From Haliotis rufescens (lineage: Eukaryota): DNA of 64,000 nt. Positions 801 through 55,000 of the stretch are shown one piece after another (position 1 is the first letter of the stretch; each line of letters opens with the position of its first letter). The notes under the pieces are model-generated. The model was not told the origin of the DNA, ran no database searches, and saw only the letters and a list, made by a program, of their open reading frames with translations. The DNA is taken from positions 28,396,001-28,460,000 of the forward strand of contig NW_025963857.1 of assembly GCF_023055435.1 (NCBI RefSeq). Direction: 5' to 3'. The translations under genes were made by a program, and so were the position numbers.

Positions 801-807
801 TATAAAA
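801..807 (+). promoter_or_regulatory. TATA box of the 398-aa secreted-protein gene
   Basis: TATAAAA 45 bp upstream of the ATG at 846. Confidence 0.6.
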
Positions 808-845: not shown

Positions 846-2308
846 ATGTTGCTCATTGTGACTATCCTCCCAGCAGTATTCTGTTTTGTTGGTATGTATG
901 AATACGTATTGTATGCTAGAGTATCGTTATGGATACACATTCGTCTCATAAGTTTTTCTTTAAAGCGTGTGTGGGGTTGATTCCATCTGGAGAATAAGGT
1001 CTGAGTGTTGTCCAGACCTGTATGTATTGTTTTGGCAAGGGAAGCAGCTCAGTTCTGTCACCTCGATTCCAAAATTCCTGCGATGGTACTCCGTTTTCCG
1101 TCTTGTGTGAAGATGGTCAAAAACAACAGGGTGTATGAAATATACACACCTACACAATGGCGTCGCTAAACTTTCTGACTTGTGAACTTGTCGTTCTGGT
1201 TCGTTTTCAAGGTAGAAATAGAGATATGCTGTTTTGCATGCAGAGCTCACTCGTACCGAAATATAGAAACGTCGACTCTAGCTAACTGATTGATTAGAAA
1301 GTTCACAGGGTGCCAACTTCTGTGCAAGTGACCTTCACGCAGAGATGTATCGTATCGGAATTCAAGATCTGATTTTAATGGGCGTGAAGCGAAATCACTC
1401 ACTTTACAGTACGAAATAACGTATTTATTATTTATTATGTCACTTAAACTACAGGAGGTTTTGATGTCCTTTGAATGCAGAGTTGAAATGGGTCTCTCCC
1501 TTGTAACTTTATTTTGTTCTACGCCATTCTACTATTACAATTGTTTTAAGGGAGCTTCTGAATAATGCTCAACCAGACACAGTCGGCCAAATCAGGCCGC
1601 GCGTTGTAATATAATGCGACCTAATTTTAGTTGTCGTTTTGGGAAAGGGGGCATGGCTGGTTGTAACCTTGACCAAACAACTTTTGAACAATAGTGTTAT
1701 ATGTGAAATCATCATAGCATGTTCGATTGTAACTTTGTTAAAGTTGTGAAATGTGGACACCAAAGGCTGGTGCTGAAATATTGCTCAACAAAAAGGGAAG
1801 TTGACTATTAAAAAGTTAAAGTCATCCCTCTTGTACTATATTCTTGTATAGAGTGTTTTGTCACTCTGAATTAACGAATGTCTGTATCCCAATACATTTT
1901 AGACTTTACACTCCAGATGCTGCTGTGGACCTGGCGTCACCCTTGGTGTTTGACCCAACATTCTATGTCAACACTCACGCTGACCTTCACCAGATGGGCA
2001 TCAACTCTAAAGCTGCCGCTAAACAACACTGGCTTTCAAAGGGGATCAGCGAGGGAAGGCAGGGTTGTGGTAGCTTCCACTCGAAACAGTATCTTAAAAG
2101 GTATACGCTACCGTATCAATCTTGTCTACGAGGTGACTAAGTGATCAGATATCCAAACTGCCTGGATCGATGTTGTTCAAAATATCAGTCACTGGATTGC
2201 CAGGTCCATACTCCATTATTAATATCTAGAATAGTGTTGTGTGAGGTGAGGTGAAATTGGGTTTAGCGTCGCGTCCAAGATTATTGCACTTACATAGCGC
2301 CGTGCATG

Positions 2309-2376
<68 letters not shown>

Positions 2377-5202
2377 TGTGTGTGTACTTGTCCTAACAAA
2401 TGCTCATTTATAGTGCTAGCTCAGTGAGATACCCTATAACATGAATACCCCACTCAGACACAGTATACTGACCACGAGCCGACCAGTCCTTGTTTTAGCC
2501 CCTTAATGCCAAGCGCCAGGCAGGGTAACAAAAAGTACCATCTTTAAACGTTTGGTCGCCTGACGCAGTCGGGGATAGAACTCACGACCTTCCACTCTCC
2601 AGACGCTCTACCACTAGACCACGTAGGCGGTCAAATAATGTAATGACATATATTGACACATTTGATGTTCCATAACCATTTCTATAAAACAAAAATTGTT
2701 CTTCCAATAACTACTTAATAACTGGCAGTCATGCATAGGCAGTTAAACGTGTGTAGTGGTATACAGATCCCACTATGAGTATGTACAGAAAAAGGTGACA
2801 TGTCTGCAGTGCAAATTCCTAGGACATTTCTTTGCCCATACTTTCCAAATGATAACGCAATGCAGTTTAGGTGAGTAAGTTTGTAAACATTTTAGACACT
2901 ATATTCCATTTCAAACACTGGGGAGGATTTCAATGATTGTAGGTCAGTATCAGGGTCAGTTTACTGTGTCTGAGTGGAGGATTTCAATGACTGTACATCT
3001 TCTGGATTGTGTGAAATTGGCGTCCATTGGTTTTTACATGAGTAACACGATGAGGACAAGATATCATATAATGACACGTTTGAAGCAGATTAAGATTTCT
3101 TATGGATGAGGAAAGGGATTTGTCGCTTTTAAATGATAAAATTTAGCATTTCTCTTCCAACAACTGATTGTGTTATATAAGGACTCACACAGATGAAGAA
3201 GACGTCATCAACTGTTCATTCTGATTTGAGTTCAGGAAACTTATTTTTCTCTCAGAAACAAGACCACGGATAATAAAAAAACAATAAACTGTTCGGAATT
3301 CCGGATTATCTGTCGTGACTTAATGTTGAGAGTACCTTATACCCAGATCGGAAACGTAGTTAGTTTGCTCATGAAAATCCGTAATGTCTAGTTGCTGGTA
3401 GGTTAGTCCATACCTCTTTATGCCGCTTTTAGCAATATTATAGCCATTTCACAATGTGACACAGAACTGTGCCTCACATGCATCCATGTTATGAATCAAA
3501 CGCAGGTCTTCGGTGTGACGAGTGAATGCTTTAACCATGAGGTTACCCCTATATGCCTCAGATTTTTAATTTTTTTCTTCAAAATTTTAATTTTCAGATA
3601 TGCTGACCTTTCCAAAGCGTTTGGAACCAACTATCATCAAGCTATTAACCACTACTTGACACATCAGAGTGAGAAAAAGCTGGGGTATGTCGAGGGAGGC
3701 TATAACGGAAGGTGGACCATATCAAATCAACACCATGACCTCTTCATCAGTGCCTCTGCTAGGATGGGAGGAGCGATTGACAGTCTGGTCTGGGACAACA
3801 AGGAATTCATTAATGCATGGGATCATGGCAGAGAGCTTCAGATGGTGACCAACGTTCACCCATACGGGGAGTGTTTCAACCCTACCGAAGCTGGAGGAAG
3901 AGATGACGGCAAAAGATCGAGCACGACGTCCAAGATAATAAGTGTAACAGCACAAAGGAATATCTTAAAAACGACAGTATGTATTACTGTTAACATATTT
4001 GAATACGATTTTAAAAGACGACTTGTGCATGCTATTTAGTAACCATGTAAACTATTACTCATATACTATTCTATATACCATTTATTGACGAAATTTGAAC
4101 AGTTGTGGTGGATTTTGTTGTATGTTCATGAAGGCCATTTCACATGACGTTTACAGGTATCTTAGATTACACAAACATATTCATGTTTTCAAAGTCAACA
4201 GAGAAGAACATAACAAGTCATATAACTACTGATTGGCGTTAAAATGTATAATATCTATAATCTGGTCAACAGTTTTCCAAAGCTTTAAGTGGGTATGGGT
4301 AGCCAAGCCGTCTAGGTTCCGCAATCCACTGAGCACAGCTGCAGCTGTCAGGCGTGTGAGAAATGTATGATCGTGGATTCGAATTCCATATTCGCCCTGA
4401 TTAGGTTTCGAGGTTTGTCAACACCATATCGTGCTCGTGGGTTTCACCAAAGTGGTAATCACACCTGACCCATGCATAACCTCGCTACTTTCTTCCAAGG
4501 TAAACAGACACAACGTGCTATAACTCAGTATCAGTTTGAACCAAACTAAAAAATACAAATATTTAAATAAATGACATCACGAGCTGAAGGCTTATTCTTG
4601 GTTGTTTTTTTCAGAATCACCCAGCTTTCTGGCTTCGTCACGGTGACCACGGGTCGGCAGCCTCGAAGAATCCTTCATGCTTACCAGGTGTACCTACAAA
4701 AAACACTGTGGACACTTACGAATACGACTTCTCAAAGAATGTGACAATAGGTTGTGCTGAAATGTCTCATTGCATCAAATATGAGTCAATGTTCACTATT
4801 GGTGGCCATTGGCCAGCTGGGTCTGTTTCACATAATATTGCAGCTCCAACTGGTTATTTGACAGGAGAGTTCCAAATCCTTAAAAGTCTCAATTTGGGTA
4901 ATGGCCAGATACAACCGTACAGCAGCAAACACCCTGTTGTTCTTGCAACATCAGATCACAGGCATGCAATGGGAGTCTACTCTCCAGAGGGCCAAGACAC
5001 AGATGCTCACTTTTATAATGGGGCACGTTTCGGAAGTGCCTTTGGTAGTGGAACCAGTAAATGGGGATCGGGGTTCCGCAAGAAGGCTTTCCCAAATGGA
5101 AGCTTGCACAAGTTATCCTACGTCACCTACATCTGCGTCGGAAATCTTGACCAGGTCACTCAATGCGTAAGAAAGCTTCACGCCACATATCCCAGAGTTT
5201 AG
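846..5202 (+). CDS. 4-exon gene for a secreted 398-aa protein: signal peptide + two 'FDxxFY..x.DL...HW/YL..G..EGR'-type repeats + uncharacterised bacterial-like domain
   Basis: Exons 846-891, 1917-2100, 3598-3976, 4615-5202. All introns are GT-AG, with phases 1, 2, 0 joining in frame (1197 nt = 398 aa + stop). N-terminus MLLIVTILPAVFCFVDAAVDL is signal-like. TATA at 801, AATAAA at 5224. ORFs 1844..2140, 3491..4039 and 4708..5202 are parts of it. Confidence 0.88.
1600..1850 (-). mobile_element. Decayed Penelope-like retroelement RT fragment (intron 1)
   Basis: Minus strand reads approximately KRDDFNFLIVNFPFLLSNISAPAFGVHISQL, like the Penelope 'YDKRDDFNF.IVNFP' motif. Homologous to ~61550-61750. 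Confidence 0.65.
2241..2632 (-). mobile_element. tRNA-derived SINE, family 1 (CACCT-repeat tail; probably Meta/RUDI-domain), with expanded (GT)n at 2312-2385
   Basis: Homologous to 7003-7314 (+) and 11468-11755 (-). B-box-like ggttcgattcccgg is seen in the + copy. Confidence 0.75.
4289..4545 (+). mobile_element. tRNA-derived SINE, family 4 (ggttcgaat..ggtttgtcaacaccatacccgtgcacg core)
   Basis: Core recurs at ~12027-12290, 12710-12830, 20220-20470, 23700-23880(-), 30230-30480, 33950-34120(-), 43500-43780, 46970-47160(-), 55630-55850, 57780-57860(-) and 59200-59370(-). Confidence 0.6.
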
Positions 5203-5223: not shown

Positions 5224-5229
5224 AATAAA
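5224..5229 (+). terminator. Polyadenylation signal of the 398-aa gene
   Basis: AATAAA 22 nt after the TAG at 5200-5202. Confidence 0.65.
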
Positions 5230-12946: not shown

Positions 12947-15081
12947 ATGTATGCATCTGTCTGTGTTACCCTCGCAGCCCTCGTGGGGTCAACCTTTGCT
13001 CAAAATGGCAACGGCATGGGATTCGTAAGTTATTCAATTCTTTTACCGTATTCGACATACATGTAATAAGTGCCCAGGGCGCTCTTAAACTGAGAAATAT
13101 GGGGCTCTTATCAGAATATTATTTAATGAAAAATTACAGAGTTGAAAGATCGTACACTTCGTGGTTTATGCTGACAGCCTGAAATGTTTATATACGACAG
13201 ATATATTTTTCCAGAATTTAATTTCCTATAATTAAGGATGCATATAACACACGTACTATACAAAAATATATACGTCTTGTGTACATTGATCAATCGGAAG
13301 GGGTGCTAATTGGAATTGTTCACTAGCCAATATATTAGCAAATATCGCCATGGGCGCTTATTACGTCGAATACGGTAAGCATAATTCCTGTTTCCAGCCT
13401 TGACATATTGCTGTTGTTTGTTAATAAACGCGACATACAGCGGAATTCCAGCTATATCACGATAATCGAACCTGGACCAGTCACTGACTGATAAAAGCGA
13501 CGTAGGGTACGATTTCACTCAACCCCAACCCCAAGTAGCCGAGCCTGACAATTTGATTCATTTGGTCACCTCTTATAACCAGTATTGGTGGCTGGAGATC
13601 TGTATGAACCCAGATTCCCCAAGGGAACAGGATTTTGTGTTGTCTAAATTTATTTATCGCTAATATATACTTTGTTCTTGTCACAATATGGCTGACAAAG
13701 TCCCGATGTGACTTTAAACTCACTCATATGTTTAGAACGAAGAACGTTAATAAAACCTATCATTTCAGTGTCTGAATCAAGGTCAAACTTGCAACTTGGC
13801 TGGAGGTAGAAGTTGTTGTACAGGTTTCTCCTGTCAGAATTCTATGGGGAACATGCGAACATGTCAGAGAAACATCAATGGAGGAAATCTGGTAAGACCT
13901 CTCACTGGTTGTCCAACCTACTTGAACATAACGATCTTCCTATTAATAATGATAAAAAGTCGGATTAACTATCGGATTAACAATGGTGTGTAAGCCTATT
14001 GAAAGAATGTTTAGTTGAAACAAAATGTAGCATCGGCGTTTCCTTAAATGGATTTGCCAAGTTTAAAACATACCGTTTACATTTGTATTGAAATGAAAGT
14101 GTACCACTTGGTGGTACACTGAAACATACAACTAAACCATGTTACTTCGGAAAACCTACAGACTTGTTATATACTGTTGATAACGGTTATCGCGATAATT
14201 CAATAATACTCCATATTGATTATACTGCAATATCATTTGATCGACGAGAAGTATTGCCATTCATGTCTTTACCATTTCAGTGTCTGAATCAAGGTCAGAC
14301 TTGCAACTTGGCAGGAACTAGAAGTTGTTGCACAGGATTCTCCTGTCAGTCTTCTGTCGGAAACATTCGCACATGTCAGAGAAACATGAATGGAGGAAAC
14401 AATATGGTAGGACATCGGACTGGTTGTCAAGAATAGCTCCTTTTTGCTGATAATAATTTCATTGCTACAAATATGATAAGTTTATATAGAAGTATTGAGG
14501 TAACAGTAGTGTGTAAGCTAACTGAAGGATATTAGATTACACATTTTAAAATAGTAACATCCTTGTTGCCTTTAACCAGATGTGCTAAAGTTTATGACAA
14601 AAGGTTGACATTTGTATCCGCTCTGTACACTGATATGAATACGACTCAACGTTGTAGTCCGCGACGTATGCGAGGAAAAAGGATATTTGAAGTTTGAAAT
14701 TACATAGATAAGAAATAAATATATTCAACTTAATCACTCTTTATTTCTAAAATGCTTTACCTGATGTCACTCATGTGTGGATAATTATATGAAATCTACT
14801 CGTAGTTTTTGAATTATGAAATAATGCAGATACGTTAATTCGAGGGTTTCATTCTTGCAAAAAAAAGTTATTTCACTTTTTGCATTATAAATGTTGTAAA
14901 AATAAACAAAATAAATATCAGTAATAATATAACATAATTTGGCTTCCTAATGACATATCCTTGTATATTTCAGTGTCGATCATATGGTCAAGAGTGCTGG
15001 AAGACAGGAGCCCAGGAGATGAGATGCTGTAATAACATGATGTGCGTTTACAACCAATATTACCAGCTGGTGTGTCAGTAA
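12947..15081 (+). CDS. K1: secreted triple-knottin (ICK-like) peptide precursor, 144 aa
   Basis: Exon 12947-13024 (MYASVCVTLAALVGSTFAQNGNGMGF), 13769-13891 (CLNQGQTCNLAGGRSCCTGFSCQNSMGNMRTCQRNINGGNL), 14281-14406 (CLNQGQTCNLAGTRSCCTGFSCQSSVGNIRTCQRNMNGGNNM), 14974-15081 (CRSYGQECWKTGAQEMRCCNNMMCVYNQYYQLVCQ*). All phase-0 GT-AG. AATAAA at 15111. Confidence 0.85.
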
Positions 15082-16932: not shown

Positions 16933-17640
16933 TAACAATTAGTGTCCAATTAGTATCCATATGTATATGACATATGACACGTGTTTCGTTATACATATAT
17001 CCAGATCTAGATGTGTTATGTTCTTAGCTTGATCATGAATGATCGTACATAAATGATGCGTACATGTATATGATATGCATGATTTACAGGTGGTATTTTC
17101 GAAACGAGTGAAATCCAGTTTATCCAGACGGTACCGTTTCGGACAGTAACTGTCCAGAAAGTCGGATTAACGGGGTCCGAACTAATGGACTTCCGCTAGG
17201 GTGGATTCGTCAACATCCACATTTTAATATTCATCTTCTTCTTAAAAATTGGGCTTTCCTCCACATCAGTCTGAAAAACCATGATAAAACTGGAATATTT
17301 GCTCAAAGCAGTGTTAAATCCAACTCACACACTCAATCGTTAGTATACATAAGTACACATATACATCTTTATCTATAACTTTATCATCATCATCATCATC
17401 ATTGTGTAATTAATTTAAAGTCAACATATATCTTCACTGATCTTGGTGTGTTACACTGTCGCAGCAACTGTGGGTGTGTCAGGTAGATGTGATGTGTGAC
17501 TTATTGTTGTATAACGTGTGATATATACATACATCCGAAACACAAAGAACACCGACTGTGCTATGCTCCATGACAAAGGGTATCGCCTATCAAGAGAAAT
17601 GAAATACTTCAGCAGCATGTGAGTGCGTCATAAACAATAG

Positions 17641-18123
17641 ATGCATACCAGTTATATAAACCTTATTCGTTATTGGTTCTCCACACTGAGAATCATGGAC
17701 TTCATGGACGTTTCATCTTCACCCTCATCCCTAATGGACTCGAGTTTGATGGACGCTCTTCATGGGATACAACCTTTGTCAGTCTCGACGCCAACACCGA
17801 CACCGACACCGTCAAATCCCCTTCAACCTCCACAACCAACCCCGCAACTACCTCAACAACTATCTCCACAACTTCCTCAACGGCAGCCTCATCCTCCGCC
17901 TCTTCATCCCAACCTACAGCGACTAGTGGAAACAGTGCTGTGTAGGACCTGTTTTAAAGCGGCGCCGTCAACAAAGATGGACTCAGTGCCTCATTCGGCG
18001 CACTACACGTGTATGTACTGTGGGGATATTGAAATGAAGTGTTTCGCTGACAAGCACAATATTTTGTGTGCGGGCATGGCTGTATTCCGGGCATTTGATC
18101 TCTGTTGTGACTGTCATCTGTAA
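17641..18123 (+). CDS. Possible exon/gene: Pro/Gln/Ser-rich linker + Cys-rich C-terminus (9 Cys incl. CxxC pairs, CCDC)
   Basis: 160-codon ORF, more GC-rich than the flanks, AATAAA at ~18198. A signal-like segment (ISSLILVCYTVAATVGVS|gt) lies at ~17428-17482, but I could not join it in frame convincingly. Confidence 0.35.
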   Translation: MHTSYINLIRYWFSTLRIMDFMDVSSSPSSLMDSSLMDALHGIQPLSVSTPTPTPTPSNPLQPPQPTPQLPQQLSPQLPQRQPHPPPLHPNLQRLVETVLCRTCFKAAPSTKMDSVPHSAHYTCMYCGDIEMKCFADKHNILCAGMAVFRAFDLCCDCHL

Positions 18124-18751: not shown

Positions 18752-20663
18752 CTACTGACACATCATCTTGTTCATGTATCCAGGCATACAGCGGAGTGAA
18801 CCACAGCATTTCATGGCGTCGATGCCATTAATTTTGCATTCTTCATTTCGGAAACGACACTGTCAAATAGAAACATGATGAATGTGTTATAAACTAATCA
18901 TATCAAATTTTAAATTCAGTACTTTGCTTGCCAAGTGGTGAGGAGGATGAAAGTATTGAAGACGTTTTAATCCTTCATATAAATCACACATGATTTTTTC
19001 TTAAAGAATACTTTTCACAGTGTTGTGTTTGTGTTTTTCTAAGTAATTTTATTTCCAATTTCTGTATACATCGTGTACATAACTATATAAACAATACATG
19101 TAACAAAGCAATACCTGGTTCATTTTAAAGCAGTATATACCATGTCTATTAATACTATTTGAGTTTTCTTAAAGAATACTACTTTCAGTGTTCTTTGTAT
19201 TTTTTTATTTTTTTTTATTTCCGATTTCTGTTTACATCGTGTACATACCTATATAAACAGTACATGTAACAAAACGATATCTGGTTCATTTTAAAGCAGT
19301 ATATATCGATACTATTTGAGATTTTATATCCTCAATATTACATAAAGCAGCGGGCCATGTCAATATCTCATGTTATTTCTCATTATATATTATATCTAAA
19401 ATTCAGACATGCTGAATATTTACATTTTTACAATTTGAATAAGAGATCTAGATGATTTGAGTTGCTTTGTAGTGTTTAAGGCTTTCTCTTTAAATCTGCT
19501 TAAAATGTGATTTTATTCAATATCTACTTTGCCTGTAATTAATTTGTTTTTTATAATCAAGGTTTAGGCATTAAGTTGATTGTTGTGTTTTCCTTTAAAT
19601 CCCAATATAATATTTTCCTTTATACAGATTTTCTACCATTATGTGTCCAAACCAACTGGTCATTTCCATTTCCTCACATTTCCTTTACTGAAGAGATATA
19701 ATTCAAGTTACAGTCTGGAGGAATGTACCATACTGGTACAATGAACATTCAGGTAAGACTGGGACATTATACGGATTTCGGGTTTCTCCCAGGATCTAAA
19801 AGACAATACCTGCTTCTTACGGGTTGGGTACAATTGTAATCGTTAGATTCTTGTTATTCACTTACCCCAGCACCACTGCCGGCACTTCTCTTGCATATTC
19901 TTGTGTTTCCTATGCCAGACTCACACATCAGGCCATTACAACATGTTTTACCATTCATCACATTGCAGGTTTGTCCCTCTGTCTGGCACTGTAAAATACA
20001 TACATCTTATTTAATGGCCCCAAACCATACATGTGTATGTCGTATTAGTATGTTTAAGCCTTTAAAATAGACGTCATATGATAATATCAAGGTGATGCCC
20101 ATCTTAAGAGCAGAGAAAAAATAAACACAATTTAATCCGAAAGCAAAAAATAAATTGTAAACACGATTATGGAAAGCTCTATTAAACAAAACGTTTCATT
20201 ACTTGCTAATGAAAAGCAGGGATCGGGCATGGTCCTGCTATGAAAGAAGCCGCAAATCGCTGTGCAGAATTGAATTCCTTATACATGCCAGAAACCTATG
20301 ATCGTGGGTTCGAGTTCCAGATACGCCCCGGCACTTATGACTCTTTGTTTATCAACACCATACCCGTGCACGTAGGTTCTCAAAAAGGTATATTTCTTGG
20401 ATCGTACCTTCGTCACACATCAAGCAGACAAGCTGTAATATACACTGTAACTACAATATTCTCCAAGCGGCTTCCAACCCAGCCTACTCGACATTACTAA
20501 TGAAAGTGATGTTTCAGACATTGAATTCTAATAAGAATAAATGTTTAAACTGCCGCTGGACTTAACAGTCAGTTTGATATTATTTAAGACTTACAAATCC
20601 ATGCGAATCTTGAATTAGAGCGGATGCTACGAGGATTAGAGCAACGCGCACTTTCAGCATCAT
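18752..20663 (-). CDS. B1: secreted double-knottin peptide precursor, type B, 99 aa
   Basis: Exons (minus) 20663-20595 MMLKVRVALILVASALIQDSHGF; 19988-19866 CQTEGQTCNVMNGKTCCNGLMCESGIGNTRICKRSAGSGAG; 18859-18752 CRFRNEECKINGIDAMKCCGSLRCMPGYMNKMMCQ*. Phase-0 GT-AG introns; TATA at 21021-21028. Confidence 0.88.
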
Positions 20664-24119: not shown

Positions 24120-25491
24120 ATGATGTTCAAAGTGTGTCTTGCTTTGCTCTTTGTGGTATCTGTACTGGGTCAAGACCTCTTTGCGGCAGGGTTTGGAGTA
24201 AGTGCTGTCATATCACTTAATCTTCATTTATGATACATGAATACTATCACTATATATGTGATCAAAAGCTGCTTTTGCAATCAGTTGATTCTTTTAAATT
24301 TCCTTCATGTTTTAAAAGACAAAAGGAACCGAAAATCATATACCACATCACGTCTTATGCTCCATGGTCCATAAACAATATAGTCTAATATCGTGATCCA
24401 GCAATCCCTTGTTCTGTTATAAATCATTTTCAAATGTTTATTTACAATCGTGTCCCCCTGTATATTAATGCCATTACTTTAGTCATTTGCCCATGTGATT
24501 ATTGGCATACATCACAATACGGCAATGATTCTAATTCTGCATGAATATGCCCCATGTTTTACTGTATTTTTCGTGAAATGTAAAAGGAGAAATATTATTG
24601 GCATGTTTATCCTACGACTGTTTTATATGTCCATAGATAAACAGTGTTGCTGAATTATAAATAATAGCAACAAATGTAACATATTGTTGGGTTACACGCT
24701 ACAAATGCAAAACCTACTTCATTTTGTTCATGCAGTGTCAGAACGAGGGGCAAACATGCAATTGGATGAATGGTAACACCTGCTGCAATGGCTTGACGTG
24801 TCAGTCGGGTTTGGGTAACATTCAAATATGCAAGAGGAACATTGGCGGCGGTATTGGTGGCGGTATTGGCGGCGGTATGGGGGTAAGTGACCGTGCCAGA
24901 CATCGCCTACTGCCATGGGATAAAATATTAAATTAGGAAATGTAGCTCTTTTCTATATCCATGTAAATGTAACTGAATAAATGTTCCCTTTAAACAAGGA
25001 TTTTGAATGATGACAAGTGGTCCGGACTGAAAGAATATTGGTGGAATATTTTACATGTATTACTCTCTTTACATGTGATTGGTGGCAAATTAGTATAATT
25101 CATGTGCCATTTCCACCTACATAACATATGTCCAAAGAAATGAGCATTGCCATTACATGCTCGACAGCTTACATGTACAATGCAGTTACAATAGAGTTCT
25201 TTCAGAAGCATCGTTTCATGGGCTTTCCAATTCAAATTCTTAAACATGATTATTTTGACTATCAGCTAATGCCTGTCGTATCACACAAAATATGTTTTGT
25301 AATACTTGGTGCAATATTGCTATTGGTGTACGCAGATGATAATTTCATGTGGATGTGTAAATGCATTCGTCTCTATTTTACAGTGTCGCCTCCGTAACGA
25401 CGAATGCAAGATTAACGGCATCAGTGCCATGAGATGTTGTGCATCCCTTCGCTGTATGCCTGGATACATGAACAGGATGACTTGTCAGTAG
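24120..25491 (+). CDS. A1: secreted double-knottin peptide precursor, type A, 110 aa
   Basis: Exons 24120-24197 MMFKVCLALLFVVSVLGQDLFAAGFG; 24736-24882 CQNEGQTCNWMNGNTCCNGLTCQSGLGNIQICKRNIGGGIGGGIGGGMG; 25384-25491 CRLRNDECKINGISAMRCCASLRCMPGYMNRMTCQ*. Phase 0; AATAAA at 25552. Confidence 0.9.
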
Positions 25492-29084: not shown

Positions 29085-30626
29085 CTACTGACACATCATC
29101 TTGTTCATGTATCCAGGCATACAGCGGAGTGAGCCACAGCATTTCATGGCTTCGATACCATTTATTTTGCACTCTTCATTTCGGAGGCGACACTGTCAAA
29201 TAGAGAACATGAATGTGTTATAAACTAATCATGTCAATTTGGCGTTATTGGCATTATGCTGACATAAAGCAATGCATGCACATAAGGCCAAATATGGACA
29301 ATGATTTGTGAATGAAAATTTAACTAAAGTAACCAAAACGTTTTAATTCTTCATATTAATCACACATTACTTTTTTTAAAGAATACTACTTACAGTGTTG
29401 TTTGTATAAACAGTAATGTAACAAAACGACATCTGGTTCATTTTAAAGCAGTATATATCGATACTATTTGAGTTTTATATCCTCAATATTACATAATGCA
29501 GCAGACCAAGTCACTATTTCATAGTATTTCTCATTATATATTATATATAAAATTCAGACATGCTGAATATTCACATCACAAGTTAAGGCATTAAGTGGAT
29601 TGTTGTGTTTTCCTTTAAATCCCAATAAATATTTTCCTTTGTACATATTTCCTACCATTATATATCCAAGCCAACAGATCATTTCCATTTCCTTCCATAT
29701 CATTACAGACTGACATATCTCGTCAAGAGATATAATTCAAGTTACAGTCTGGAGGAATGTACCATACTGGTACAATGAAACTTCAAGTAAGACTGGGGAT
29801 ATAATACGGATTCCGGTTTTCTCTCAACACCTAAAAGACAATACTTGCTTCTTACGGGTTGGGTTCAATTTCAGATTCGTGTTATTCCCTTACCCCAGCA
29901 CCACTGCCGGCACTTCTCTTGCATATTCTTGTGTTTCCTATGCCAGACTCACACATCAGGCCATTACAGCATGTTTTACCATTCATCACATTGCAGGTTT
30001 GTCCCTCTGTCTGGCACTGTAAAATAGAATACCTCTTATATTGTGGTCCCAAACCATATGTCGTGTTAGTGTGAATTAGCCTCAAAATAGACGTCATACG
30101 ATAATATGCCATGCCCATCAAAACAGCAAAGAAAGTATAAACGTAATTTAAATAAAGCCAAACACCCTGTAAACACGATTATGGAAAGCTCTATTAAACA
30201 AAACGTTTCATTACTTGCTAAGGAAAAGCAGGGGTCAGGCATGGTCCTGCTATGTAAGAAGCCGCAAATCGCTGTGCAGAATTGAGTTCCTTATTCATGC
30301 CACAAACCTATGATCGTGGGTTCGAGTTCCAGATCAATTATGACTCTTCGTTTATCAACACCAACCCGTGCACGTAGGTAAATGTCTTGCATATGCAATT
30401 GTACCAACCTCATGCATCAAGCAGACATGCTGTAATACACACTGTAACTAAAATATTCTTCCAAGCGGCTTTCAACCCATGTTACTCGACACTACTAATT
30501 TTAATAAGAATAAATGTTTAAACTCAAACAGTCAGTTTGATATTATTTGAGACTTACAAATCCATGCGAATCTTGAATCAGAGCGGATGCTACAAGGATT
30601 AGAGCAACGCACACTTTCAGCATCAT
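29085..30626 (-). CDS. B2: secreted double-knottin peptide precursor, type B, 99 aa
   Basis: Exons 30626-30558 MMLKVCVALILVASALIQDSHGF; 30016-29894 (protein identical to B1 domain 1); 29192-29085 CRLRNEECKINGIEAMKCCGSLRCMPGYMNKMMCQ*. TATA at 30978-30985. Confidence 0.88.
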
Positions 30627-34392: not shown

Positions 34393-35747
34393 ATGATGTT
34401 CAAAGTGTGTCTTGCTTTGCTGTTTGTGGTATCAGTACTGGGTCAAGATCTCTTTGCGGCAGGGTTTGGTGTAAGTGCTGTCATATCACTTAATCTTCAT
34501 TTATGAAACATGTATACTATCTCTCCGTGGGGAAATATGTGATCAAAAGCTGCTTTTGCAATCAGTTGATACTTTTAAATTTCCTTCATGTTTTAAAAGA
34601 CAAAAGGAACCGAAAGTCATATACCACATCCCGTCTTATGCTCCATGGTCCATAAATAAGATAGTCTAATATCGTGATCCAGCTATCACGTGTTCTGTTA
34701 TAAATCATATTCAAATGTTTATTTACAATCGTGTCCCCCTGTATATTAATGTCATTACTTTAGTCATTTGCCCATTTGATAATTGGCATGCATCACAATG
34801 CAGCAATGATACTAATTCTGCCCCATGTTTTACTGTATTTTTCGTGAAATGTAAAAGGAGAAATATTAATAGAATGTATATCCTAGCACTGTTTATATGT
34901 CCATAGTTTAACAGAGTTGCTGAATTATAAATAGTAGCAACAAATGTGACATATTGTTGAGTTACACGCTACAAACTTACTTCATCTGTTCATGCAGTGT
35001 CAGAACGAGGGGCAAACATGTAATTGGATGAATGGTAACACCTGCTGCAATGGCTTGACGTGTCAGTCCGGTTTGGGTAACATTCAAATGTGCAAGAGGA
35101 ACATTGGCGGCGGTAGTGGTGGCGGTATTGGCGGCGGTATGGGGGTAAGTAACCGTGCCAGACATTGACTTCTGCCATGGGATAAGACATTAAATTAGGA
35201 AATGTAGCACTGTACTATATCCATGTAAATGTAACTATACAAATGTTCCCTTTAAACAAGGATTTTGAATGATGACAAGTGGTCTGGGCTGAAAGAATAT
35301 TGGTGGAATATTCAACATGTATTACTCTCTTTACATGTGATTGGATGAAAATTAGTATATGTGTCATTTCCACCTACATAACATACGTCAAAAGAAATGA
35401 GCATTGCCAGCACATGCTCGATATCATACATGTACAATGCAGTTACTATAGTTATTTCAGAAGCATCTATTCATGGGCTTTCCAATTCATATTCTCAAAC
35501 ATGATTATTTTGACTATCAGCTAATGCCTGTCGTATCACACGAAATGTGATTTGTGATACTCAGGGCAATATTATTGTTGGTGCACGCAGATGATACATT
35601 TCACGTGGATGTGTAAATGTATTCTTCTATATTTTACAGTGTCGCCTGCGTAACGACGAATGCAAGATTAACGGCATCAGTGCCATGAGATGCTGTGCAT
35701 CCCTCCGCTGTATGCCTGGATACATGAACAGGATGACTTGTCAGTAG
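34393..35747 (+). CDS. A2: secreted double-knottin peptide precursor, type A, 110 aa
   Basis: Exons 34393-34470, 34998-35144 (...IQMCKRNIGGGSGGGIGGGMG) and 35640-35747. TATA at 33805-33812. Confidence 0.9.
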
Positions 35748-42125: not shown

Positions 42126-43959
42126 CTACTGACACATCATCTTGTTCATGTATCCAGGCATACAGCGGAGTGAACCACAGCATTTCATGGCTTCGATACC
42201 ATTTATTTTGCATTCTTCATTTCGGAGACGACACTGTCAAATAGAAACATGAATGTGTTATAAACTAATCATATCAATTTGGCATGATTGGCATTATGCT
42301 GACTAAAAGCAATGCATACACATAAGATCAAATATGGACAATGATTTGTGAATGAACATTAACTAATGTAACGAAAACGTTTTAATTCTTCATATTAATC
42401 ACACATTATTTCTTTCTTAAAGAATACTACTTACAGTGTTGTTTGTATTTTATTTTATTTTATTTTATTTCCGATTTCTGTTTACATCGTGTACATACCT
42501 ATATAAACAGTAATGTAACAAAACGATATCTGGTTCATTTTAAAGCAGTATATATCGATACTAGTTGAGTTTTATATCCTCAATATTACATAATGCAGCT
42601 GACCAAGTCATTATTTCATAGTATTTCTCAATATATATTATATATAAAATTCAGACTTGCTGAATATTCACATCCTTAAATTGTGTATGCAATGATGACC
42701 AAAACATTAAGAACTGTGCCTGGTTACAATTTGAAGAAGAGATGGTTTGAGTTGCTTTGTAGTGTAAAAGGCTTTCTCTTTAAATCTGCTTAAAATGTGA
42801 TCCTATTCAATATCTACTTTGTAAGTAATTTGTTTTGTAATCAAAGTTAAGGCATTACGTGGATTGTTGTGTTTTCCTTTAAATCCCAATAAATGTGTTC
42901 CTTTGCACATATTTCCTACCATTATATGTCCAAGCCAACTGGTCATTTCCATTTCCTTCCATATCAGTACAGACTGACATATGTCGTCAAGAGATATAAT
43001 TCAAGTTACAGTCTGGAGGAATGTACCATACTCGTACAATGAAAATTCAGGTAAGACTGGGACATTATACGGATTCCGGTTTTCTCCCAACACCTAAAAG
43101 ACAATACTTGCTTCTTACGGGTTGCGTACAGTTGTAATCGTTAGATTCTTGTTATTCACTTACCCCAGCACCACTGCCGGCGCTTCTCTTGCATATTCTT
43201 GTGTTTCCTATGCCAGACTCACACATCAGGCCATTACAGCATGTTTTACCATTCATCACATTGCAAGTTTGTCCCTCTGTCTGGCACTGTAAAATAGAAT
43301 ACCTCTTATATTATGGCCCCAAACCATATGTCGTGTTAGTGTGAATAAGCCTAAAAAAAGACGTCATATGATAATATGTCATGCCCATCACAACAGCAAA
43401 ATGTATAAACGTAATTTAAACCGAAAGCCAAAAACCCTGTAAACACGATTATGGAAAGCGCTATTAAACGAAACGGTTTATTACTTGTTAATAGAAAGCA
43501 GGGGTCACGGTGGTCCTGCTATGTTGAGAAGCCGCAATTCGCTGTGCAGAATTGAGTCCCTTAGCCATGCCACAAACCTATGATCGTGGAATTCCAGATA
43601 CATCCCGACACTTATGACTCTTTGTTAATCAACACCATACCCGTGCACGTAGGTTCTCAACAAAATGGTATATTTCTTGGGTATGCAATCGTACCTTCGT
43701 CACACATCAAGCAGACAAGCTGTAATATACACCGTAACTACACCGTAACTACATAACTCCAAGCGGCTTCCAACCCATCCTACTCGACATTACTAATGAT
43801 AGTGATGTTTCAGACATTGAATTCTAATAAGAATAAATGGTTAAACTGTTCGTGGATTAAACAGTCAGTATGGAATTATTTAAGACTTACAAAGCCATGC
43901 GAATCTTGAATTAGAGCGGATGCTACGAGGATTAGACCAACGCACACTTTCAGCATCAT
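42126..43959 (-). CDS. B3: secreted double-knottin peptide precursor, type B, 99 aa
   Basis: Exons 43959-43891 MMLKVCVGLILVASALIQDSHGF; 43286-43164; 42233-42126 CRLRNEECKINGIEAMKCCGSLRCMPGYMNKMMCQ*. TATA at 44329-44336. Confidence 0.88.
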
Positions 43960-47381: not shown

Positions 47382-48703
47382 ATGATGTTCAAAGTGTGTC
47401 TTGCTTTGCTGTTTGTGGTATCAGTACTGGGTCTAGACCTCTTTGCAGCAGGGTTTGGGGTAAGTGCTGTCATATAACTTAATCTTCATTTATGATACAT
47501 GTATACTATCTCTCCGTGAGGACATATGTGATCAAAAGCTGCTTTTGCAATCAGTTGATTCTTTTAAATTTCCTTCATGTTTTAAAAGACAAAAGGAACC
47601 GAAAGTCATATACCACATCACGTCTTATGCTCCATGGTTCATAAATAAGATAGTCCAATATCGTGATCCAGCAATCCCTTGTTCTGTTATAAATCATATT
47701 CAAATGTTTATTTACAATCATGTCCCCTGAATATTAATGTCATTACTTTTGTCATTTGCCCATGTGATTATTGGCATACATCACAATTCGGCAATGATAC
47801 TTATTCTGCATAAATATGCCCCATGATTTGCTGTATTTGTCGTGAAAGGTAAAAGGAGAAATATTAATAGAATGTTTATCCTAGCACTGTTAATATGTCC
47901 ATAGTTTAACAGAGTTGCTGAATTATAAATAGTAGCAACGAATGTGACATATTGTTGAGTTACACGCTACAAATGCAAAACTTACTTCATCTGTTCATGC
48001 AGTGTCAGAACGAGGGGCAAACATGCAATTGGATGAATGGTAACACCTGCTGCAATGGCTTGACGTGTCAGTCAGGTTTGGGTAACATTCAAATATGCAA
48101 GAGGAACATTGGCGGCGGTATTGGTGGCGGTATTGGCGGCGGTATTGGCGGCGGTATGGGGGTAAGTAAACGTGCCAGACATTGACTTCTGCCATGGGAT
48201 AAGACATTAGAGATTTTGAATGATGACAAGTGGTCTGGACTGAAAGAATATTGGTGGAATATTCAACATGTATTACTCTCTTTACATGTGATTGGATGCA
48301 AATTAGTATATGTATCATTTCCACTAACATAACATACGTCCAACAAAATTTAGCAATTCCACTACATGCTCGATAGCATACATGTACAATGTAGTTACCA
48401 TAGTTCTTTCAAAAGCATCGTTTCATGGGCTTTCCAATGCTTCTTCTATTTTTAAACATGATTATTTTGACTATCAGCTCATGCCTGTCGTATCAAACGA
48501 AATGTGATTTGTGATACTCAGTGCAATGTGCTATTGATGTACGTAGATGATACATTTCATGTAGAGGTGTAAATGAATTCTTCTATATTTTACAGTGTCG
48601 TCTCCGTAACGACGAATGCATGATTAACGGCATAGGTGCCATGAGATGCTGTGCATCCCTCCGCTGTATGCCTGGATACATGAACAGGATGACTTGTCAG
48701 TAG
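47382..48703 (+). CDS. A3: secreted double-knottin peptide precursor, type A, 114 aa
   Basis: Exons 47382-47459 MMFKVCLALLFVVSVLGLDLFAAGFG; 48003-48161 (linker has one extra IGGG); 48596-48703 CRLRNDECMINGIGAMRCCASLRCMPGYMNRMTCQ*. TATA at 46835-46842. Confidence 0.9.
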
Positions 48704-52049: not shown

Positions 52050-55000
52050 CTACTGACAAGTCATCCTGTTCATGTATCCAGGCATACAGCGGAAGGATGC
52101 ACAACATCTCATGGCACCTATGCCGTTTATCATGCATTCGTCGTTACGGAGACGACACTGTAAAATATAGAAGAATACATTTACACCTCTACATGAAAAA
52201 TATCATCTACGTACATCAATAGCACATTGCTCTGAGTATCACAAATCACATTGCGTGTGATACGACAGGCATGAGCTGATAGTCAAAATAATCATGTTTG
52301 AGAATATGAATTGGAAAGCCCATGAAACGATGATTCTGACAGAACTAAATGGTAACTGCATTGTATATGTATGCTGTCGAGCATGTAATGGCAATGCTCA
52401 TTTCTTTGGACATATGTTATGTAGGTAGAAATGACACATGAATTATACTAATTTGCATCCAATCACAGTTAAAGAGAATAATACATGTAAAATATTCCAC
52501 CAATATTCTTTCTGTCCAGACCACTTGTGATCATGGGTATAGGGAACATGTGTATAGTTACATTTACACGGATATAGTTCAGTTCTACATTTTCTAATTT
52601 AAAATCTTATCCCATGGCAGTAGTCGATGTCTGGCACGTTAACTTACCCCCATACCTCCGCCAATACCGCCACCAATACCGCCGCCAATGTTCCTCTTGC
52701 ATATTTGAATGTTACCCAAACCCGACTGACACGTCAAGCCATTGCAGCAGGTGTTACCATTCATCCAATTGCATGTTTGCCCCTCGTTCTGACACTGCAT
52801 GAACAGATGAAGTAAGTTTGGCATTTGTAGCGTGTAACTCAACAATATGTTACATTTGTTGCTACTATTTATAATTCAGCAACTCTGTTAAACTATGGAC
52901 ATATAAACAGTGCTAGGGTGAACATACCATTAATATTTCTCCTTTTACCTTTCACGACAAATACAGTAAAACATGGAGCAAATTTATGCAGAATTAGTAT
53001 CATTGCCGAATTGTGATGTATTCCAATAATCACATTGGCAAATGACTAAAGTAATGACATTAATATTCAGGGGGACACGATTGTATATAAACATTTGAAT
53101 ATGAATCATAACAGAACAATTATAAACAGCTTTAGGATAACAGCATGAATGTTGAGATGAGCATACATTATAATAATACTTTATTTCTACTTTAACCTTT
53201 CACGAAATATACAGTAAAACATTTAGTAAACGTCGTACTGTTAAGTATTCCAATAATCACATGGTTATCACGTCCATAGTGTGACGTATTATAATAATCA
53301 CATGGGTAATGTAAAATATGCGGGTGTTGTTCTACAAAGTAATCTTTCTTTCAAATTATATATTGAAGAGAGGTGCACAAAAGCAAGGCGTACTAACGTC
53401 ACTCCTCTCTGTTGGTCTAAATAGTAGTGACTTACATCAGAATGCAAGTATTGAGATATGGAAAAGAATGATCTTAACAACAAGTTTTTATGGATGTGAA
53501 TTACTACCTCCTCTGCATGGTAAAGATCTTGAATTAGGTGAAAGCACCCAGCGTTACTTTACAAGGATTGTACAAGGTTTTGACAAACGTTCCCCCACTA
53601 TTGCTAATCTAGGACTTTGGAGCATGGTTTGCTATATAGATAAATGTAGACTTCAGCTGCTGGGGCGTCTCTGCAACAACTCATATGTCTCAATTTGTAA
53701 AGTGTTTTCTGCGCATCAACTTCACTCTATTTCTTTCATAACAATAATTTACACAGTTTATGTGGAGTGTTGCTCTCAATAGCCAAGAAATATAACCTAC
53801 TTCATCATGTATTTCATTACGTTCGCACAGGGGAATTCCCCGCAAAGACTAAGTGGAGAAAAATTGTGTTAAATTAAATAACTACCCTCGAGGAAGAAGT
53901 ATGGAAATATAAACTTTCATGTAGAGCTGACCTATCTCGATATTATAAAATTCACACAACACTTACTCCTCATGTGTTATACAGCACTGTACTGTTATAT
54001 CCAGAATTGAGAGAAGAAATACAGTATTTAATAAAAATTGGATCCAGAAGCAAAATATCAAAAGAATGTACAAAATGTAATTCTTTTGCTCATGATTTTT
54101 ATCACCATGTCATCTTAAACTGTGAATGTCTACTTTCAGAGAGAGATTTATTCTTTTCAACTCCAATTGATAATCTTGATGTTGAAATGTATGTTAAAAT
54201 AGAGATGATGGAAGACCATAGTATGTTAGCATTCTTTCTTGGTGCAGATAACAATGACATTGATGTAATAACGTTGAATTTCACAATTATTGAATTTTCA
54301 AAGTATTTCTATCAAATTAAACATATCCTAAACAACGTCTGGTAACCTTACCAATATTTCTCTCTGTTTTAGCCTGTAAATATGCGGGACATTGATATGT
54401 ATATATGTGTGTATATATATTTGATTATTGTGTTGTTTGATTATTTAATTACATAATCTTGATGTTTTGAGAATCTTCGGATTTCTCATTCATTCATCCA
54501 ATCACATGTAAAGAGAATAATACATGTAAAATATCCACAAATATTCTTTCTGTCCAGACCACTTGTGATCATGGGTATAGGGAACATGTGTATAGTTACA
54601 TTTACACGGATATAGTTCAGTGCTACATTTTCTAATTTAAAATCTTATCCCATGGCAGTAGTCGATGTCTGGCACGTTAACTTACCCCCATACCTCCGCC
54701 AATACCGCCACCAATACCGCCGCCAATGTTCCTCTTGCATATTTGAATGTTACCCAAACCCGACTGACACGTCAAGCCATTGCAGCAGGTGTTACCATTC
54801 ATCCAATTGCATGTTTGCCCCTCGTTCTGACACTGCATGAACAGATGAAGTAAGTTTGGCATTTGTAGCGTGTAACTCAACAATATGTTACATTTGTTGC
54901 TACTATTTATAATTCAGCAACTCTGTTAAACTATGGACATATAAACAGTGCTAGGGTGAACATACTATTAATATTTCTCCTTTTACCTTTCACGACAAAT

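Follow-up and report, generated by a model that had tools for sequence, protein, structure and literature searches.

An abalone gene of an unnamed, largely bacterial protein family, predicted to encode a secreted glycan-active protein with alanine in place of a conserved glutamate

The DNA analysed here is a 64,000-nucleotide stretch of the Haliotis rufescens genome (contig NW_025963857.1, positions 28,396,001 to 28,460,000), hereafter the window, which carries at positions 846-5202 of its forward strand a four-exon gene for a 398-amino-acid protein. The protein belongs to a family that none of three profile libraries names, and its relatives are mostly bacterial where named. With moderate confidence, we propose that this is the abalone member of a family of likely secreted glycan depolymerases acting on algal or microbial walls, and that the copy in the window, which has lost a conserved glutamate at position 279, is probably weakened or a glycan binder.

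The initial annotation of this DNA had described a clean four-exon gene, and read contigs bear this out at all three introns. The coding exons (846-891, 1917-2100, 3598-3976 and 4615-5202) are one among many GT-AG combinations that leave the frame open in an enumeration, and this set was chosen because contigs of runs X1, X5 and X7, from three studies, splice exactly so, skipping 1025, 1497 and 638 bases at GT..AG joints. The gene is transcribed and spliced in these runs, whose type, 'RNA?', is a guess, the gene-containing runs not being on record as RNA and their tissue not being stated; contigs of a fourth run, X15, cover the introns and contain none of the joints (joints in three of the four runs compared). 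Exon 1, placed by enumeration, read joints and hydropathy, encodes a hydrophobic signal-like peptide and ends in phase 1 at intron 1 (892-1916). Frames, fold model and repeat profile place a first helical repeat (about 1946-2065) and the start of a second in exon 2, which is followed by intron 2 (2101-3597; phase 2 in codon 77), with high-copy repeats inside. Exon 3 completes repeat 2 and opens a beta-supersandwich domain from about residue 112 (position 3701), intron 3 (3977-4614) falls in phase 0 after codon 203, and exon 4 carries the remainder of the domain, a C-terminal helix and the stop codon, as judged from frames, joints and fold model. The gene lies within a 32.8-Mb contig of a 1.33-Gb genome and is therefore not bacterial contamination, an origin that the spliced introns and the mollusc orthologues also rule out. 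Haliotis cracherodii has a protein of the same length (P0001, 398 amino acids) that differs at 10 of 398 residues. The coding sequence has a GC content of 47%, compared with 33-41% in 2-kb bins of the window; coding GC is uninformative about origin at the age considered below.

Residues 2-15 are hydrophobic (mean Kyte-Doolittle value 2.9) and no further membrane segment follows (maximum later 19-residue mean 0.8). From this signal-like N-terminus we infer secretion, the signal peptide noted in the initial annotation being predicted by hydropathy, not by a signal-peptide predictor. The N-terminal repeats recognized at that stage were recovered together with all the motifs quoted: there are two helical repeats of about 40 amino acids each, repeat 2 scoring E 7.8e-6 against a profile of repeat 1 in a single comparison. 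Their suggested likeness to glycosyltransferase-associated proteins was borne out: over 83-117 columns, the repeat region matches glycosyltransferases of giant viruses, and also an FkbM methyltransferase, at 26-36% identity. These repeats would form a non-catalytic anchoring or binding module. They are followed by a 287-amino-acid C-terminal domain, beta-rich from about residue 112 and closed by a helix, for which the AlphaFold model of the window protein (predicted local distance difference test score, pLDDT, 93; predicted template-modelling score, pTM, 0.91) predicts a beta-supersandwich fold. Pfam matched neither the window exons nor P0001, and left the domain unmatched in the 38 family members scanned; among 23 members, NCBIfam gave one weak unrelated match and PHROGs none. 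The ESM Atlas returned only clusters without names, in one of which 86% of the sequences are eukaryotic and most come from Mollusca; named look-alikes scored below 0.9 and were regarded as chance.

The family is large and widespread. At E 1e-10, a protein profile search recovered 2319 of the 8000 proteins scored. An exhaustive search yielded 709 cluster representatives at E 1e-30 and 1677 at E 0.001, the latter count possibly including repeat-only matches since the profile took in part of the repeats. Of 435 pattern matches in the genomes of prokaryotes, 279 are relatives; ten named phyla are represented among the 80 loci kept, most often Planctomycetota (28) and Pseudomonadota (20). This agrees with the likeness to Planctomycetes and Proteobacteria first suggested for the C-terminal domain, except that the nearest named bacteria, among the best 120 of the 2319 matches from which taxa were read, are mostly Myxococcota with the same repeats. 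Repeats and domain are found together in proteins of Pyxidicoccus, Cystobacter, Lysobacteraceae, Ideonella and Myxococcota bins. Gastropod members come from Haliotis, Littorina, Batillaria and Babylonia, and bivalve members from Pecten, Argopecten, Ostrea, Saccostrea, Mytilus, Pinctada, Sinanodonta, Potamilus and Solemya. The named protist records are two Bolivina argentea (Foraminifera) proteins and a EukProt entry, and viral contigs gave 2 relatives among 60 pattern matches. Carbohydrate-enzyme, glycan-binding or dockerin modules are fused to 8 of the 63 long homologues (SASA esterase twice, GH76, CBM60, NAGPA, peptidoglycan-binding twice and dockerin), and 6 of the 63 carry a type IX secretion tail. 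Two bacterial loci (L019 and L060) each hold two family members within a few kb; the larger neighbour clusters around bacterial loci proved to be opposite-strand frames or genus-level synteny. Literature on the family was found neither by the homologues' NCBI locus numbers nor by topic, in a search that excluded subscription papers.

The fold brings the domain close to carbohydrate enzymes. Among 48,161 chains, the best structural match is the GH174 enzyme Fun174A (8jd7; Z 21.9, root-mean-square deviation 3.1, 258 residues aligned), followed by the GH174 enzyme Fun174Sb (9k1g; Z 21.1), P19 of the chlorovirus PBCV-1 (Z 20.4) and a PL26 lyase (Z 18.1); further matches include an Aspergillus rhamnogalacturonan lyase (Z 15.4) and mutarotases (Z 13-14), and nearly all of the best 50 are carbohydrate enzymes or mutarotase-like. 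Foldseek placed P19 first and GH174A next. The earlier suggestion of a possibly carbohydrate-active protein fits both this ranking and the fusion partners. The GH174 endo-1,3-fucanases share with the predicted model a fold dominated by beta-sheets, about 260 residues being aligned at a structural identity of 10-13%. By sequence the family is not GH174, and it may work like GH174. Relatives of the window protein include those of freshwater mussels, Methylobacterium and myxobacteria, in contrast to GH174, and with such freshwater and soil-type relatives fucan need not be the family-wide substrate. P19, a minor capsid finger protein (8h2i), is a sequence homologue (profile search, E 1.5e-9) with the same sandwich and C-terminal helix, and its Glu221 stands opposite position 279 in the profile alignment; chlorovirus-type entries also top the viral fold search. 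Unlike the window protein, P19 is a virion protein, the N-terminal repeats are missing from its aligned range, and the DHGRELQ region described below is unaligned in sequence. Shao and colleagues described a rod of ligand-like density in its trench and proposed a role in cell-wall degradation, as a lyase (parts of PMC9617893). The galactose-mutarotase-like beta-supersandwich enzymes, such as PL26 and PL4 rhamnogalacturonan lyases and aldose 1-epimerases, have the fold in common (Z 13-18), and Pfam matched none of these families in the 38 members scanned.

Twelve residues of the domain (D152, H153, R155, Q158, E168, E174, D180, K244, E279, Y284, K352 and W353, numbered as in the window protein with the family residue given at 279) are each present in 320-340 of 341 aligned rows. 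They include the DHGRELQ motif (residues 152-158; 3821-3841, forward strand), in which D, H, R and Q occur in 336, 330, 340 and 338 rows, and the ECFNPTEAG motif (residues 168-176; 3869-3895, forward strand), with E168 in 326 and E174 in 331. Codon 279 (4840-4842, forward strand) specifies Ala in the window protein and Glu in 329 of the 341 rows. This alanine is kept in all four runs compared, labelled as four organisms, and in H. cracherodii. Seven of the 12 exceptions are gastropod or gastropod-like rows, two abalone paralogues among them. Those lacking Glu279 (P0005, P0025, P0253, P0090, P0015, P0027 and P0001) mostly have Val instead and belong to abalone and periwinkle-type lineages. Every bivalve row has Glu279, and among the 22 mollusc rows tallied Glu279 is found in 18 and D152, H153, R155 and Q158 in all 22. 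This pattern possibly reflects repeated loss in gastropod paralogues, and the conserved glutamate so lost may be catalytic.

The abalone genome contains further copies, their number resting on one single-protein search that gave five matches at four loci. A few kb upstream of the window lies a tandem paralogue (C79:28391380-28393840 for exons 2-4) that keeps Glu279; with its exon 1, a candidate only, the locus (L102) spans G000:C79:28389047-28393840. Contigs of X2, X7 and X13 match it with loose ends. In the assembly its exon 3 contains a one-base insertion, and an X5 contig with its five diagnostic substitutions shows no gap at that site; the break may therefore be allelic or stem from faulty assembly. 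A stretch of the window gene (3679-3911, forward strand) is near-identical to this paralogue, with a synonymous divergence (dS) of 0.05 over codons 105-167 compared with 1.13 in exon 4, which makes recent gene conversion likely; in exon 4 the ratio of nonsynonymous to synonymous divergence (dN/dS) between the two is 0.22, indicating purifying selection. Another paralogue (G000:C5:867120-872270), which matches a named H. rufescens protein at 98-100% identity, has Val at position 279. A third (C592:174832-175855) has about 85% protein identity to this C5 copy, its exon 4 not being found in the 20 kb examined.

In the mechanism that we favour, the glycan would lie in the concave trench of the sandwich, in the manner of the rod-like density of PBCV-1 P19, and D152, E174 and E279 would form, with H153, R155, Q158, K244, Y284, K352 and W353, a putative binding and catalytic site where hydrolysis would be somewhat likelier than lyase chemistry. 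The key residues of GH174A are given as D119, E120 and E218 (parts of PMC11943901). A fragment model of a bacterial homologue places the DHGRELQ motif near D119 and E120 of 8jd7 (end pairs 156-121 and 280-236), assuming that the PDB entry follows the numbering of the paper; a second fragment comparison listed no GH174 match. Several observations weigh against a depolymerase of this type. The fragment match is weak (Z 4.2), and it brings position 279 near residue 235 and away from E218. Profile searches of 177,635 PDB sequences, with E up to 1 and up to 10, reached only P19 and no GH174 entry. The same fold also appears among the structural matches in GH38 and GH2 enzymes and in YidC, where we take the domain to be non-catalytic, and a common fold alone shows no function. 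Moreover, 37 of the 63 long homologues have no Pfam partner, no partner family recurs across phyla among the 975 open frames clustered around bacterial loci, and no family member with assayed activity was found in the literature.

Two other functions have to be considered. The protein could be a lyase cleaving uronic-acid glycans by beta-elimination, an epimerase or a mutarotase, with His, Lys, Tyr and Arg as the working residues instead of two acids. In that case the loss of Glu279 would be of no consequence, and the window copy would have full activity. In this fold, the PL4 lyase uses Lys and His, and mutarotases use His and Glu. H153, R155, Q158, K244, Y284 and K352 are indeed conserved like the acids, the fold is common to the lyases and mutarotases listed above, and the proposal made for P19 points the same way. 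Against it, the top two structural matches are hydrolases and the four acids D152, E168, E174 and E279 are each present in at least 326 of 341 rows; we consider this reading rather unlikely, if the foremost of the functional alternatives. Alternatively, the whole animal branch could consist of non-enzymatic secreted proteins that bind glycans in mucus, in the gut or in immune recognition of microbes. The gastropod replacements of Glu279 would suit such a role, as would the copy-number growth and gene conversion seen for the abalone gene, both of which are common in recognition genes. The retention of Glu279 in most mollusc rows and in every bivalve row, and of D152, H153, R155 and Q158 throughout, speaks against it and leaves it very doubtful. 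We retain a family of likely glycan depolymerases, in which the window copy is probably weakened or turned to binding.

The initial annotation had further read the gene as a domesticated bacterial gene that gained introns. Bacterial homologues, genomic integration and splicing agree with this; the nearest non-mollusc relatives do not, being eukaryote-like. In a FastTree phylogeny of 341 domain rows, the sister of the molluscs is a clade of short contigs, followed by protist-like rows and then by repeat-bearing bacteria. By bit score, the best non-mollusc matches are in the sister clade (288), followed by the protist-like rows (271) and bacteria (249-260). In a mixture-model quick tree of 65 rows, 23 of 88 having been dropped as near-redundant, Shimodaira-Hasegawa-like approximate likelihood ratio test (SH-aLRT) values are 97 for molluscs, 98 for molluscs plus sister clade and 93 for all eukaryote-like rows. 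A full-length tree of 51 rows supports molluscs at 100/99 and molluscs plus sister clade at 99/98, and places 33 of 34 eukaryote-like rows together at 98/87. All trees are unrooted, and molluscs are not nested within bacteria in the best of them. We regard the sister clade as eukaryotic because one of its loci, L086, has spliceosomal-type introns. A partial gene of the clade (L099, 770-1995; placed there at 100/99) has introns at codon 77 in phase 2 and after codon 203, two sites exactly as in the abalone gene, plus two others. L099 and L086 are intron-bearing contigs of a metagenome collection, and many short European Nucleotide Archive (ENA) fragments belong to the clade, which suggests an abundant organism group.

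A direct transfer from a bacterium, likely of myxobacterial type, into a mollusc ancestor, other eukaryotes having gained the gene separately, finds support in the named records. Among the matches listed in three word-limited searches, for one of them the best 120 of 2319, the named animals are all gastropods or bivalves (in another search 21 of 43 matches are named, all molluscs). Proteins of Pyxidicoccus and Cystobacter share the repeat-plus-domain build and are about 39% identical, and an alien index calculated from named records alone comes to +34. With the sister rows included, the index falls to -34, and the grouping of molluscs with this intron-bearing clade and the two intron sites of L099 argue for a shared eukaryotic ancestor. 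On the full length, the approximately unbiased (AU) test rejects a placement of the molluscs with repeat-bearing bacteria only at the borderline (p 0.047), and with the domain alone it does not reject this placement (p 0.27). Other points also count against a shared ancestor: on the domain alone, joining sister and protist rows with molluscs outside is 5.3 log units better than the free tree, L086 has no exact abalone intron site in the stretch seen (nearest 4 nt off), and the 'sister' label and most 'protist-like' labels were assigned in this analysis, not taken from records. The groups were named after inspection of the FastTree phylogeny, three rows being later moved from protist-like to bacterial, so the topology tests are not independent of the grouping. 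A single eukaryote-like clade is not rejected on the full length (p 0.17). The direct route is thus disfavoured only marginally by these tests, and on all the evidence we judge it unlikely.

The history that we prefer is one of old bacterial ancestry, which is likely since the family is spread far wider in bacteria. The repeat-plus-domain form would have entered eukaryotes long ago, the ancestor of molluscs and of the intron-bearing sister lineage would already have had the gene with introns, and abalone would later have duplicated it. Any bacterial transfer predates the split of gastropods and bivalves, and probably molluscs; a recent abalone-specific transfer is ruled out by orthologues across both classes. 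The branching of these orthologues agrees roughly with that of the species: the full-length tree unites the bivalves and divides the gastropods between two groups. The broad eukaryotic distribution regarded at the outset as contrary to bacterial origin was found in part. An ancient, patchily spread gene of bacterial type is an already known kind of finding. GH13 alpha-amylases are likewise scattered in animals and protists, which was read as ancient transfer, loss or both (parts of PMC7003070); the GH13_1 and GH13_15/24 families pose a like puzzle in animals, but they are named and their activity is known. 'Haliotis' does not appear in the main text of a compendium of metazoan horizontal gene transfers (PMC13342648), whose supplement may list the gene.

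The family is of interest as a large group nameless in three profile libraries, with a fold suggestive of glycan cutting and a link between a giant-virus virion protein and molluscs. The tandem pair with Glu and Ala is a natural control for the candidate catalytic residue. Fucoidanase activity has been reported from digestive tissue of Haliotis, Pecten maximus, Patinopecten and Littorina (parts of PMC3736431), and mollusc fucoidanases are described as unclassified in the sections consulted of a 2025 review (PMC11943901). With homologues in Haliotis, Pecten maximus and Littorina, the family offers a concrete candidate gene for these enzymes, a link that is a hypothesis of this analysis. Its boldest form, that the family is a new glycoside-hydrolase family near GH174 and that its Glu-bearing mollusc members are animal enzymes cutting fucoidan or algal walls, and the genes behind the unclassified fucoidanases of abalone, scallops, Littorina and Lambis digestive glands, is speculative and in our view improbable. 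Under that reading, a giant virus, bacterial predators, protists and molluscan grazers would all open cell walls with one enzyme family, and abalone would keep an active copy beside catalytically altered ones.

Two sequence signals flank the gene. A TATA-like box (801-807, forward strand), by consensus match only, lies 45 bases before the ATG, and a poly(A)-signal match AATAAA (5224-5229, forward strand) follows the stop codon, the X1 contig ending at 5244 and the X7 contig continuing beyond. Elsewhere in the window, exon-like frames occur at 17634-18123 and 20213-20500, one with a Thr/Ser-rich stalk, and the two scanned have no Pfam match. An exon-like stretch of 32 codons, with a knottin-like cysteine spacing (C-6-C-7-CC-4-C-9-C) that is the same in every copy, also occurs eleven times in the window, six on the forward strand (13769-13864, 14281-14376, 24736-24831, 34998-35093, 48003-48098 and 58065-58160) and five on the reverse strand (19893-19988, 29921-30016, 43191-43286, 52699-52794 and 54737-54832). 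Pfam scans of three of these frames gave weak matches to Toxin_7, tachystatin B and conotoxin, all below the cut-off (E 0.0003-0.06); the copies appear to form an expanded cluster encoding small secreted cystine-knot peptides with a possible antimicrobial role.

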